Shown: positions 9,001 through 15,000 of the stretch, piece by piece
Position numbering within the stretch: position 1 is the stretch's first letter
Layout: every line of letters starts with the position of its first letter
From: a virus
Lineage: Duplodnaviria; Heunggongvirae; Uroviricota; Caudoviricetes
Virus record (IMG/VR): IMGVR_UViG_2585427748_000009
Strand: one strand, 5' to 3'
Length of the DNA: 32,607 bases
Program-made: the position numbers

Positions 9001-12000
9001 AATATTGATCTCCTGAAGGCTGCCTGCCGTCAGGAGGTGTGGATCAACCCTATAGATGCGCAGAAACGTGGGATTGCCAACGGCGATATGGTGCGGGTGT
9101 TTAACCATCGTGGCGAAGTTCGGCTACCAGCCAAAGTAACACCACGTATTCTCCCTGGAGTTAGCGCTATGGGCCAGGGAGCCTGGCACGAGGCCAATAT
9201 GTCTGGCGATAAAATCGACCATGGCGGCTGTGTGAATACGCTAACCACTCTGCGCCCTTCACCACTGGCGAAGGGAAACCCGCAGCACACTAATCTGGTC
9301 GAGATCGAAAAAATATAACCCACGACAACCATAAATTCTGGCATGACATTTTGTTTGAAAAGCAATAAGTGAGTAATGATGAAAATCCATACCACAGAGG
9401 CGCTCATGAAGGCTGAAATCAGCCGTAGAAGTCTGATGAAAACCTCCGCACTTGGCAGTCTTGCGCTGGCAAGCAGTGCTTTCACTCTGCCATTTTCCCA
9501 AATGGTCCGGGCGGCAGAGGCTCCGGTAGAAGAGAAAGCGGTCTGGAGTTCCTGCACCGTTAACTGCGGGAGCCGCTGTCTGTTACGTTTGCATGTGAAA
9601 GATGACACCGTGTACTGGGTGGAGTCTGATACGACAGGTGACGACGTCTACGGTAATCATCAGGTTCGAGCGTGTTTACGCGGGCGCTCTATCCGCCGAC
9701 GGATGAATCATCCTGATAGGTTGAAATATCCCATGAAGCGCGTCGGCAAGCGCGGTGAAGGTAAATTTGAACGGATAAGTTGGGACGAAGCCCTGGATAC
9801 CATCAGTGATAATCTTCGGCGGATCCTGAAAGATTACGGCAATGAGGCTGTACATGTCCTGTACGGAACAGGCGTAGATGGCGGAAACATCACCAACTCA
9901 AACGTCCCGTACCGTCTGATGAACTCTTGCGGTGGTTTTCTCAGTCGCTATGGCAGCTACAGTACCGCACAGATCAGTGCCGCAATGAGTTATATGTTCG
10001 GTGCCAATGATGGCAACAGCCCGGATGATATCGCCAATACGAAACTGGTCGTTATGTTCGGAAATAACCCGGCAGAAACGCGGATGAGCGGCGGTGGTGT
10101 CACTTACTACGTCGAGCAAGCCCGCGAACGTTCAAACGCACGCATGATCGTCATCGATCCACGTTATAACGACACTGCTGCCGGGCGTGAAGATGAATGG
10201 CTGCCCATTCGCCCTGGCACCGATGGCGCACTGGCCTGTGCGATTGCCTGGGTACTGATTACTGAAAACATGGTCGATCAGCCATTTCTCGACAAATATT
10301 GTGTTGGTTACGATGAAAAAACGCTGCCCGCCAACGCACCACGTAACGCGCATTATAAAGCCTATATTCTGGGCGAAGGGCCTGACGGCATAGCTAAAAC
10401 GCCGGAATGGGCAGCAAAAATCACCAGCATCCCGGCAGAAAAAATTATCCAGTTGGCACGAGAGATCGGTTCAGCAAAACCTGCTTATATTTGTCAGGGT
10501 TGGGGGCCACAACGACATTCCAACGGCGAGCAAACATCCCGCGCTATTGCCATGCTTTCCGTTCTCACCGGCAACGTCGGCATAAACGGCGGCAACTCAG
10601 GCGTACGCGAAGGTAGCTGGGATCTGGGGGTAGAATGGTTCCCGATGCTCGAGAATCCTGTTAAAACGCAGATTTCCGTCTTTACATGGACAGATGCCAT
10701 CGACCATGGTACGGAAATGACCGCGACCCGTGATGGTGTTCGTGGAAAAGAAAAACTGGATGTCCCCATCAAGTTTTTATGGTGCTACGCCAGTAACACA
10801 TTGATCAATCAACATGGCGACATCAATCACACCCATGAGGTGCTTCAGGATGACAGCAAGTGCGAGATGATTGTTGGCATTGACCACTTCATGACGGCCT
10901 CGGCTAAGTATTGCGATATCCTGTTGCCCGACCTGATGCCAACAGAGCAAGAAGACCTTATCTCTCATGAATCTGCAGGGAATATGGGCTATGTGATCCT
11001 CGCCCAACCCGCAACCTCAGCAAAATTTGAACGCAAACCCATCTACTGGATGCTGAGTGAAGTCGCCAAACGCTTAGGACCAGACGTTTATCAAACCTTT
11101 ACTGAAGGTCGCAGTCAGCATGAATGGATCAAATATCTCCATGCGAAAACGAAGGAACGTAACCCTGAGATGCCCGACTACGAGGAGATGAAAACGACCG
11201 GGATCTTTAAGAAAAAATGCCCGGAAGAACACTACGTCGCTTTCCGCGCATTCCGTGAAGATCCACAGGCAAACCCGTTGAAAACACCTTCGGGGAAAAT
11301 CGAAATTTATTCTGAACGACTGGCGAAGATTGCAGATACCTGGGAATTGAAAAAAGATGAAATTATTCATCCCCTTCCTGCGTATACCCCAGGTTTTGAT
11401 GGCTGGGACGATCCCCTGCGGAAAACCTATCCACTGCAGTTAACGGGCTTCCATTACAAAGCGCGTACCCACTCCAGCTACGGCAATATTGATGTGTTAC
11501 AGCAGGCCTGCCCACAAGAGGTGTGGATCAACCCCATTGATGCTCAGGCACGCGGTATCCGTCATGGCGATACCGTGCGGGTATTTAACAATAATGGAGA
11601 AATGCTGATTGCCGCAAAAGTGACTCCGCGTATTCTGCCTGGCGTTACCGCCATCGGGCAAGGTGCGTGGCTTAAAGCGGATATGTTTGGTGACCGGGTC
11701 GATCACGGCGGCAGTATCAATATTCTGACCTCTCACCGCCCTTCACCGCTGGCAAAGGGAAACCCGTCGCACAGCAATCTTGTCCAGATCGAAAAGGTTT
11801 AAGGAGTAGCCCATGACCACACAATATGGATTTTTTATCGATTCCAGCCGCTGTACTGGCTGTAAAACCTGCGAACTGGCGTGCAAAGATTTTAAAGTTG
11901 GTTACGTATCGTTTAAAATCAATTAGATAGCCCGTCATTTCTGCGCTCACACGTCCCAACATTGAAAAACATGCAAAGCTTTGTAAGCCGATGCAAAGCT

Positions 12001-15000
12001 TTGTGTGTCTCACTTTTGTCCCAATACCAATCCGAATCCACCCTTTGTCATCATTGAGAAATGGCAAGGAAGAAAAGGATGTTACTGCACGATTTGACAA
12101 ATCCGCCAGAGCTATCGCATACTGACCGCACTACAACGTCAGCGGTCAACCGCACCCGATAGCTTTGCGGCTTTTTTATGCCTGTTTACAGGTATCGCCA
12201 TATCAATGGCGGGTCGAGAGAGCCTAATACAATACCCTTTCGGGAAATACGCTCCGCCGTCTGACGCGGTAGTTGAAGCCCGCCACCCCACTAAGGTGGC
12301 AGTCAATACTAAAACGTCAGGAGTCATAATTATGACTAATCAACTCATTCCCGTTTTCGATGGAACCATCAACAACGAACCAGTTTTACTTTGCAATGCT
12401 CGCAATCTGCACGCTTTTCTTGGTATTGGTAAAATGTTTGCTCACTGGATCAAGGACAGGCTGGGTGAATATGGATTCGTTGAAAATCAAGATGTTGTTA
12501 TTGCTTGCCAAAATTGGCAAGCAAAAGGTAGAGGCGGTCACAACCGCAAGGAATACCACCTCACCCTCGACACAGCCAAAGAGCTTGCGATGGTTGAACG
12601 TAACGAAAAAGGCCGCCAGATACGCCGCTACTTCATCGAGTGCGAAAAGAAACTTCGCAACATTCAGCCAGTACAAACTGAGCAGCAATTCACAGCCGAA
12701 GAAATCATCCTCCTTTGCTACATGCAGCTCTGGATGGAAAAAGCCCAGGACCTCAGCAAACACCTGTATCCCATTATGAAAGAGCTGAACTCCTCATACA
12801 CGAACAAGCTGTATGACATTGCGTTTGAGACCATCTACATGGTGACGAAGAACAGAGACGCGCGACTAAGGGAGGTAACACATCTCGACATGTCAAGTTC
12901 CGTTATCCAGCGGGCCATGCCAATGCTGAAAAGTCTGCGGGCAAGACAATTTGAATTCTGAAACCAAAGGAGCTTCGGCTCCTTTTTTCATGCCTGAAGG
13001 AAAGGAAAATGGCAGATATCATCGACAATGCCGCTGAAATCGAAGAATTGCAGCGCAATCTCTCCCTGCAAAAATACAAATCCGATAGTAATGCCCCATC
13101 TGCTACTCATTGTTGCGAGTGTGGCGATCCGATAGATGAGCGGCGACGCCTGGCTGTTCGTGGATGCCGAGCTTGCGCCAGTTGCCAGCAGGATATTGAA
13201 CTTATCAACAAACAGAGAGGTGTGAAGTGAACATCAACACCACGATAACGATCGATACAGCCCTGAACACCGGCCTGGCGCTCCTTGGTTATTTCTACAT
13301 CATGTTCTGCAGCGGACGATGGCTGTCACTGTTGTTCATGAAAAAATGGAATAAACGCCGTAAGCAGGAGCAACGCCAGAAGGCAATGGATGCATTTTTC
13401 GAAGCCTTCGGGATTGACAGCATGGAACCAGGGGATCCAGCTCGCGCAATCAGCAGAGGGGGCGTAGTAATCCTTGTATATCGGAGTGAAGAGAAAAATG
13501 ACGATCACAAAACAACGTGTAGAAAAAATCATATATCGCCATGAAATGGGACTGAACAGCGATGTCACTGCCGAAGAGGTTTATGACCTGGCTGTACTGG
13601 CGCTGAATTTATCAAATATCGCAAACCTGAAGCGATACGAGCTTGATATGGATTGTTGTGACTCGTTCGGTCAGGATTGTGGCGCTGACATGACTGAAGA
13701 TTCTGATGGCGATTATGTTCTGTTTGATGACGTGGTTAAGTTGTTTGAGTTTGATACAACCACTCAAAAGTTAGAAATCCCGGCAAACGAGGCTGCCAGT
13801 GAGCAAGATTGACTATCAGGCACTGCGCGAGGCGGCGGAACAGGCAACGCAAGATGAATGGGTAGCATATATTTTGCCGGGTCATAACGGCATTTATCCT
13901 GCGCGCACGTCTGAGGGTAGGCATTGCGGATACTTTATTGACTGGCCTGGCATCTGTCAGGGGCGGGAGAGCATCAACATGAGCATCAGAACCTACGCAG
14001 TGAATTGCAATGACGCATGGCTAAACACCGAAGGTGATGACATCTCCGGCTCATACGTTAAGTACAAAGACCATCAGGAAGTGGTTGCCGCTCTTGAGGC
14101 CAAGTGCGCGGCGCTGGCAGCGGAGAATGCGGGAATAAAGTCTGCAATTCCAGAATCACGGGATATTGAGGATGACAATGACAATATGGATGACGTATCT
14201 CTCGCGGAAGACTTCGGGTTCAATCATGCAATAGAACGGATGAGGAGACAGATACCTGAAACGCCAACCACTGATGCTTTCCTGGCTGAAGTCCGGGCGC
14301 AGGGGGTGGATGCTGCTATAGAAGCTGCAAAAAATCTGGTGGCCCAAGAATATGAGTATAAGGATTTCAAAGCGGCGCAGAGTGATTGCTGTATGCACCC
14401 TGGTTCAGACCTGGTAGGGAAGGTTGAAATGACTGAGTGGTTAGTTGACTTTGCTGCCCAGCTTCGCAAAGGAGGCAACCAGTGAGCGAAATTAATTACC
14501 AGGCACTGCGTGAGGTGGCGGAACGTGCAATTCCAGCAATGGAACGCCTGTTAATGTTGCCAGCTGATGATGACTTGTTAAGTGAACAGGAACTTAAAGA
14601 TTACGGTGTGGATATTGATGCGCTCAACGCCTTCAAATTTCTGACCGGACCAGAAACCGTGCTGGCACTGCTGGATGAACGGGAAAGAAACCTGCAATAC
14701 ATCAAAAGCCGCGATCAGGAGAACGAGGATATTGCGCTAACGGTAGGGAAGCTGCGCGTTGAGCTTGAAGCAGAAAAACAGCGGGCAAAAGTTCTATTTA
14801 TGGAAAATGCTCGGCTTAAGTCAGGCATAGCCGGTCTGATACACCTCGGTATTCGATATGCAGATGTTGAGGTCATGAAAATTGCTGGAGATGCCCAGCT
14901 TTCTACCCCATGCACTGACAGCATCATAAACAGCATTGCAACAGGCATTCGCATCAAAGGAGAGTGATATGGCGTTAACACACCACGAACTCTGTCAGAT

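Follow-up and report, generated by a model that had tools for sequence, protein, structure and literature searches.

A lambdoid prophage junction within ynfG at the 7-bp sequence TTTAAAG

The 32,607-nucleotide virus record IMGVR_UViG_2585427748_000009 of IMG/VR (Caudoviricetes), referred to below as the window, carries ynfE and ynfF of the selenate reductase operon of Escherichia coli, followed by ynfG, the gene of the iron-sulfur subunit, which is broken off near its start and continues as phage DNA. Positions 11891-11897 of the window are almost certainly the integrase-distal core (attR) of a lambdoid prophage of ~62 kb that was inserted site-specifically in ynfG. The window covers this junction and ~20.7 kb of the prophage, which continues past position 32607. 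The opposite, int-side junction and the integrase were read in related genomes, chiefly that of Escherichia coli FORC_069, in which the junction probe described below is 100% identical. K-12 ynfG was used as the reference for the intact gene, and attP was reconstructed from both junction arms around TTTAAAG. The coordinates of all features are collected in Table 1.

The stop codon of ynfF (TAA, 11800-11802) is followed by GGAG at 11803-11806 and by an ATG at 11813, as stated in the original prediction, which had called the frame opened there YnfG-like. The open reading frame (ORF) at 11813-11926 is translated as MTTQYGFFIDSSRCTGCKTCELACKDFKVGYVSFKIN and a stop. Residues 6-25 are identified by Pfam as 4Fe-4S binding domains (Fer4_2/Fer4; E = 5.9e-7 for Fer4_2), which supports that assignment. 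Alignment with K-12 ynfG, proposed at the time as a check, fixed the breakpoint at 11897 and located a 7-bp core repeat, TTTAAAG. The two sequences are identical through 11897 and unrelated beyond it. The K-12 protein starts with MTTQYGFFIDSSRCTGCKTCELACKDFKDLGPEV and reads ACKDFKDLGPEV at the breakpoint, so that the native part extends over 28 residues and the first base of codon 29 in this alignment, rather than over the 26 residues first counted. Of the tail FKVGYVSFKIN, first taken to be foreign as a whole, VGYVSFKIN and the stop are phage-derived; FK, encoded within the core, still belongs to native YnfG.

The sequence of K-12 attB is GCGTGCAAAGAT-TTTAAAG-ATCTTGGCC, that of the window junction is GCGTGCAAAGAT-TTTAAAG-TTGGTTACG, and that of the int-side junction of FORC_069 is GAGCAACAAC-TTTAAAG-ATCTTGGCC. 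When the 5' part from the window is joined to the 3' part from FORC_069, K-12 ynfG is obtained exactly around TTTAAAG. The GenBank record of phage POCJ13 (NC_025434) terminates exactly at both flanks of the core, and its right end, read as the reverse complement, is identical to the window from 11898. The record of phage 75/02 Stx, which is circularly permuted, opens with CTTTAAAG-TTGGTTACG. With K-12 identity up to 11897 and the POCJ13 terminus from 11898 onward, the predicted disruption of ynfG by a prophage junction is borne out.

A junction probe of 151 nt spanning the breakpoint (probe base 58 corresponds to window position 11897) was compared with a panel of 5,426 complete E. coli genomes. 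The probe matched 5,318 genomes, and the match was end to end, representing the same junction, in 82 of the 5,426. In the genomes lacking the junction (~5,240) the match ends at 11897 inside an annotated intact ynfG in all of those sampled down the ranking. Each probe-matched genome was matched at one place, and none of them has the ynfG 5' end a second time. The lysogens that bear the junction include the O104:H4 outbreak strains 2011C-3493, C227-11, and 2009EL-2050/2071. The int-side junction is present in 89 genomes of the panel.

The FORC_069 prophage is ~62.5 kb in length and contains int together with recombination, replication, lysis, and morphogenesis genes. At its far end, 52 bp separate the integrase gene from the final 540 nt of ynfG, after which come ynfH, dmsD, and clcB, all on a single strand. 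The integrase, which adjoins the ynfG remnant, has 387 residues (Pfam Phage_integrase, E = 1.5e-45), and 386 of these are identical to those of Int from Shigella phage POCJ13. In the FORC_069 annotation by the Prokaryotic Genome Annotation Pipeline (PGAP), the window-side piece of ynfG is a pseudogene ("4Fe-4S binding protein, missing C-terminus") and the int-side piece is a partial pseudogene ("missing N-terminus").

In the proposed mechanism, a tyrosine integrase would have recombined attP (...GAGCAACAAC-TTTAAAG-TTGGTTACG...) with the ynfG site (...GCAAAGAT-TTTAAAG-ATCTTGGCC...) and would have cut ynfG after codon 28. The 5' piece retains the first cysteine group and now ends in a phage-encoded tail of nine residues. 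The 3' piece (540 nt) would be placed, with ynfH and dmsD, at the opposite end of the prophage, where int immediately precedes it in the same orientation. Precise excision is expected to restore ynfG, since both host arms are unaltered.

Subunits of the DmsB type have four cysteine groups that bind four [4Fe-4S] clusters. Neither piece of YnfG has all four groups, and we therefore infer that YnfG is non-functional and that the YnfEFGH enzyme is left without an electron-transfer subunit of its own. YnfG transfers electrons between YnfE and YnfH (PMC5203670). YnfEFGH activity would be lost in the lysogen. The genes ynfH and dmsD, ~62 kb away, would be severed from the ynfE promoter, with polarity or altered expression as the expected result. 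DmsD, encoded downstream of ynfEFGH, is a chaperone essential for the maturation of DmsABC (PMC12096835). Read-through from int may transcribe ynfH and dmsD, because no terminator-like element was found in the 52-bp spacer between int and ynfG and int points into the remnant. The one minus-strand terminator candidate in the vicinity lies within native ynfG sequence and is weak. Nothing usable came from a literature search for ynfH-dmsD transcription that does not start at the ynfE promoter.

The change of sequence after codon 28 could in principle be an allelic variant or a small frameshift of ynfG with no mobile-element breakpoint, for which the short ORF itself speaks and nothing else does. 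The similarity to ynfG, however, halts abruptly at 11897 and resumes nowhere in the window, and what lies downstream is the POCJ13 terminus, with >20 kb of phage genes after it. This explanation was ruled out by the 151-nt probe across genomes together with the match to the POCJ13 terminus, and its probability is practically nil. It is highly improbable that an unrelated rearrangement, such as an insertion sequence (IS)-mediated or homologous deletion or inversion, joined ynfG to a prophage resident elsewhere. Such an event would be compatible with the single junction in the window and with an IS66-family element ~10 kb upstream, by which the region is shown to contain other mobile DNA. It is contradicted by a breakpoint that equals the attP core of POCJ13 and 75/02 to the base, by related genomes that have an integrase at a reciprocal junction with this 7-bp core, by the identical junction in 82 genomes of many sources, and by site-specific insertion demonstrated experimentally (PMC4193171).

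The original prediction had allowed that the gene might be rebuilt at the other junction. Many gene-inserting phages do supply a replacement 5' end, and a functional YnfG could still be made if this prophage did so at its int side. Consistent with this, int is transcribed toward the ynfG remnant, and the core is preceded, at a distance of 5 and 6 codons, by two GTG codons in frame. The translation of the int-side junction of FORC_069 in the ynfG frame, ...RKHK-stop-LN-stop-NELSLRFQVVSNNFKDLGPEV..., led to rejection of a phage-supplied N-terminus. The two GTG codons are the only candidate starts and lack a Shine-Dalgarno sequence, stops lie further upstream, and the remnant begins with FKDLGPEV. 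A product initiated at GTG would contain only VVSNN as its phage-encoded part before FKDLG and would be without Cys14, Cys17, Cys20, and Cys24, so that the C14-x2-C17-x2-C20-x3-C24 group is missing entirely, in agreement with the N-terminally truncated pseudogene called by PGAP. Because the upstream frame has stops, the GTG codons have no Shine-Dalgarno sequence, and the first cysteine group is absent, ynfG is not rebuilt in FORC_069, and the chance that functional YnfG is made in this way is very slight.

A decayed, non-excisable remnant, with permanent disruption of ynfG, is an unlikely but not negligible alternative to an excisable prophage. The int end of the element lies beyond the window, lysogens of MG1655 carrying POC-J13 gave no viable phage (PMC4193171), and FORC_069 has pseudogenes in its ant region and a frameshifted ORF. 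In opposition to this, the large ORFs visible in the window are all open, including a gene of 2,783 codons, and the relatives hold a complete genome of ~62.5 kb with the functional modules listed above.

Several points weigh against insertion of a complete prophage with loss of YnfG function. Only one junction lies in the window, and the integrase of this strain, its second junction, and the completeness of its prophage are extrapolated from relatives. The proposed arm-type sites described below rest on word counts that are no more than suggestive, since some hexamer reached four copies in 137 of 2,000 shuffles. YnfG and YnfH might also be replaced in part by their paralogues DmsB and DmsC. 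In the work of Lubitz and Weiner from 2003, YnfG and YnfH were reportedly able to replace DmsB and DmsC; to our knowledge, the reverse substitution (DmsB/DmsC for YnfG/YnfH) has not been tested.

The ynfG insertion site is already known as a published, routine prophage attachment site, and current understanding of it is unchanged. Previously, all tested clinical isolates of Shigella flexneri that are positive for stx1a were found to carry the Stx1a phage phiPOC-J13 in S1742, their homologue of ynfG (PMC4193171). In laboratory lysogens analyzed by junction polymerase chain reaction, POC-J13 was found in S1742 of 2457T and in ynfG of MG1655, and the integration was called site specific by the authors (PMC4193171). 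Phage 75/02 of Shigella sonnei also integrates at ynfG (PMC5447701), and a 62.5-kb Stx1a prophage occupies ynfG in E. coli O113:H4 strain RM10410 (PMC10562709). The initial remark that insertion in the 5' part of a coding sequence is less common is correct for temperate phages generally but not for Stx-type lambdoid phages, which are routinely found inside genes such as wrbA, ompW, and dusA (PMC10562709).

Judged by its sequence, the prophage is a short-tailed, 933W-like member of the Sepvirinae with an integration module of the POCJ13 and 75/02 type. POCJ13 (Sepvirinae, Diegovirus) shares the attB site, the 7-bp core, and an identical phage arm from the first base after the core, and the order at its right end is the same (ant, DUF4752, Ea22, DUF551, giant LPD protein, Lom, and tail fibre). 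It differs in that only 64% of window 11898-16600 aligns with POCJ13, at 94% identity, and the early-left accessory genes are mosaic. In FORC_069, in comparison with POCJ13, no stx is annotated after Q, and the next annotated gene encodes an esterase of the SASA/NanS type; the Q-to-lysis part of the prophage under study falls beyond the window. The arm of 75/02 Stx is identical over the first ~220 nt, whereas its ant leader has the small-RNA loop CUUGUAAG in place of CUGACG. Phage 933W, of the same subfamily and with a lambda-type Int, is likewise inserted within a gene (wrbA), and its record annotates an attR core of 7 bp, as here. From this core there follow an arm with repeated short words, a conserved ant leader, and ant. 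The integrase, the target gene, and the arm word of 933W (GCCCCAA vs GTCCCAA in the window) are different.

Active lysogeny, as with the Listeria phage phi10403S in comK, is the reversible disruption of a gene by an excisable prophage. The ynfG insertion resembles it in that a coding sequence is interrupted at a short core and would be regenerated by precise excision. The two cases differ in that regulated, lysis-free excision and a selective role of restoration of the gene would be additional assumptions for ynfG.

The phage arm adjacent to the core contains GTCCCAA words at 11953-11959 and 12018-12024. In the reconstructed attP, GTCCCA is present in four copies on one strand, at -106, -95, +59, and +124 from the core, with two words in each arm; those of the int-side arm are at about 6236-6252 of the int-side locus extract. 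The whole 32.6-kb window has 10 copies of GTCCCA on both strands, and the enrichment in attP is merely suggestive by the shuffle test given above. A run of GCCCCAA words occupies the equivalent arm position in 933W. The GTCCCA(A) words are candidate arm-type integrase sites, and the 933W run would fit a kind of site that varies with the integrase.

In the same arm ATGCAAAGCTTTGT, whose center CAAAGCTTTG is palindromic, occurs twice without a mismatch, at 11971-11984 and 11991-12004. The copies are 20 bp apart and jointly form a hairpin of 17 pairs, and a third half-site, AGCTTTGCGG, is located at 12161-12170. The 14-mer ATGCAAAGCTTTGT was rejected as an arm-type integrase site, as no copy with 3 or fewer mismatches was found in the int-side arm. 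The pair is more likely to be bound by another, dimeric protein or to be a plain hairpin. The region 11969-12008 is flagged by a simple terminator scan, and a weak Rfam match of this hairpin to mir-19 was dismissed as noise.

Beyond the arm, the leader of the antirepressor gene ant contains the only Rfam match at gathering score in the window. This small RNA, sRNA-Xcc1, is preceded by promoter-like, repeat, and terminator-like elements and followed by a second repeat that overlaps the GGAG of the ant Shine-Dalgarno sequence (Table 1). Homologous leaders are found before the ant genes of 933W, 75/02, P13374, and Aggregatibacter phage S1249, with Xcc1 scores of 65-71 bits. The loop of the second inner hairpin of the small RNA varies by phage and is in each of five variants the exact reverse complement of a word in both flanking repeats. 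The loops and the flanking words are CUGACG and CGTCAG in the window, CUUGUAAG and CTTACAAG in 75/02, CUUAUUUG and CAAATAAG in 933W, CUUUGAAG and CTTCAAAG in P13374, and CUAGUCU and AGACTAG in the second copy of S1249. A second block in the upstream repeat covaries in the same manner (GUAGU/ACTAC, UCAGU/ACTGA, and CUAGU/ACTAG). Exact-word complementarity across the five phages was used for this comparison; a cross-phage control matrix was noisy, with AGTTGA/TCAACT conserved in all ant genes. Fold prediction for 12125-12345 pairs the variable-loop part of the small RNA with the upstream repeat (z = -3.6). Duplex prediction for the whole small RNA and its flanks was discarded as uninformative, because nearly the entire molecules pair.

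Phage S1249 has two tandem copies of sRNA-Xcc1 (257-343 and 491-574 of the locus extract) upstream of one ant gene. For the loop of the first copy, CCUAUUGC, the complementary word GCAATAGG is present upstream, and no obvious downstream target was seen.

The arrangement resembles the immI region of phages P1 and P7 (c4, icd-ant), in which a promoter, an a1/b1 repeat, a small structured RNA, an a2/b2 repeat at a ribosome-binding site, and an antirepressor gene succeed one another, and in which, between heteroimmune phages, the RNA loop changes in step with its target sites. The RNA also resembles the Rfam C4 consensus, in which ACC comes after an acceptor-like closing stem and the second of the two inner hairpins has a long loop. 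It differs from the P1 element in matching RF02221 and not C4 or c4-a1b1. The Rfam models C4 (RF01695) and c4-a1b1 (RF03163) gave no match in the window even at E <= 10, whereas P1 itself scores 68.8 and 51 bits, respectively. There is also no icd-like leader ORF here, and the target is the ribosome-binding site of ant itself. By analogy with P1, the leader RNA most likely works like c4, as an antisense block of the ant ribosome-binding site that sets immunity specificity.

The sRNA-Xcc1 family is described as a trans-acting small RNA of Xanthomonas. None of the papers found in the searchable literature connected Xcc1 with c4 or ant, and the only related mention was that of Xcc1 upstream of an ORF6N protein in a paper on the APSE phage. 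One GenBank record of an Stx2 phage annotates "sRNA-Xcc1" at the ant-leader position. The number of ant-type genes varies among relatives: FORC_069 has a truncated antA/antB pseudogene, Ant, and a BRO protein (21034-22197 of the locus extract), and the window has a single ant gene in the stretch compared (12200-12961). These differences point to frequent recombination in the immunity-like module.

Transcription that leaves ynfF in the direction of ant meets the hairpin of 17 pairs at 11969-12008 and then the hairpin and T-run at 12150-12179. The latter, whose loop exceeds 8 nt, escaped the simple terminator scan for that reason, and it would be expected to stop ynfF read-through as well. A broader proposal treats the insertion as a conditional switch. 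Lysis-free precise excision would restore ynfEFGH-dmsD for respiration of selenate or S-oxides; or anaerobic, FNR-driven transcription of ynfEF would cross the 37-codon stub into the ant leader ~200-400 nt further on and tie ant, and with it prophage induction, to anaerobiosis. This proposal is quite improbable, and geometry is its whole support. A smaller novel element is that sRNA-Xcc1, at least in these phages, would be a c4-type immunity RNA for ant.

The phage-type genes that had been predicted downstream of the junction were identified as those for an antirepressor, a TraR/DksA zinc finger, DUF4752, Ead/Ea22, DUF551, Lom, and a tail tip fibre protein. The giant LPD38/LPD5 protein is conserved in POCJ13 (gp71) and in E. 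coli relatives. The prophage part of the window (20.8 kb) has its best relative at 99.3% identity, with 97% of the length aligned.

Table 1. Coordinates of the host, junction, and prophage features of the window
Feature	Position	Strand	Basis
ynfE, intact, 808 codons	6892..9318	+	ORF list; collinear with annotated ynfE of FORC_069 and K-12
ynfF, intact; final complete operon gene before the prophage	9376..11802	+	ORF list; collinear with FORC_069 and K-12
Chimeric 37-codon ORF, YnfG residues 1-28 and phage-encoded tail VGYVSFKIN	11813..11926	+	ORF translation
Native ynfG 5' fragment, 28 codons and 1 nt, with the entire first cysteine group C14-C17-C20-C24	11813..11897	+	Identical to K-12 ynfG; Pfam Fer4_2/Fer4
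7-bp crossover core TTTAAAG, common to attB, attP, and both prophage junctions	11891..11897		Alignment of K-12 attB, window junction, FORC_069 int-side junction, and POCJ13 ends
Phage arm of the int-distal junction (attR, 933W convention)	11898..12093		Identical to POCJ13 and 75/02 arms
Promoter-like TTGACA-18-CATACT, head of ant leader	12094..12123	+	Consensus scan 10/12; invariant in POCJ13, 75/02, and 933W
Upstream target-like repeat (a1/b1-type) ACTACAACGTCAG	12130..12148	+	Direct repeat; complementary to small-RNA loop, covaries across phages
Terminator-like hairpin CCGCA...TGCGG and T-run	12150..12179	+	Read from sequence; invariant in four phages
Small RNA, Rfam sRNA-Xcc1 (RF02221)	12208..12292	+	53.0 bits = gathering score, E = 6.9e-9 (local search)
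Downstream target-like repeat (a2/b2-type) ACTAAAACGTCAGGAG, contains ant Shine-Dalgarno sequence	12308..12326	+	Direct repeat; loop complementarity
Antirepressor gene ant, AntA and P22_AR_C domains	12332..12961	+	Pfam, E = 4.4e-24
TraR/DksA zinc finger	13009-13230	+	Pfam
DUF4752	13227-13544	+	Pfam
Two Ead/Ea22 genes, then DUF551	downstream of DUF4752	+	Pfam
"Large polyvalent protein" LPD38/LPD5/LPD1/MuF_C, 2,783 aa, intact single ORF	16612-24963	-	Domain search
Lom	26576-27313	-	Domain search
Tail tip fibre protein	28356-29630	-	Domain search
Rest of prophage right part, running off the window	12962..32607		Collinear with FORC_069 and POCJ13 gp57-gp79

At the other end of the window, collinearity with FORC_069 begins only at 1696, just past the stop codon of rspB, and FORC_069 has ydfJ to the left of this point. 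Within positions 1-1695 the window has an IS66-family element whose two minus-strand genes encode TnpB_IS66 (618-965) and a helix-turn-helix transposase accessory protein (965-1642). In other genomes with the rspB-side joint, genes for an ISCro1-family transposase and a site-specific integrase are annotated under the match. The arrangement suggests a second mobile-element junction beside rspB.

A split ynfG is useful for annotation and typing in that it marks the POCJ13-type integrase module, and the site is occupied in ~1.5% of complete E. coli genomes. It is shared by Stx1-converting phages of Shigella and E. coli, and the O104:H4 outbreak lineage is among the occupied genomes. The proposed role of the ant leader would give the Rfam family sRNA-Xcc1 a concrete, testable function that is not spelled out for phages in the searchable papers. 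Lysogens should be without a YnfG of their own, and expression of ynfH and dmsD may change, as a cost or a modulation of lysogeny.

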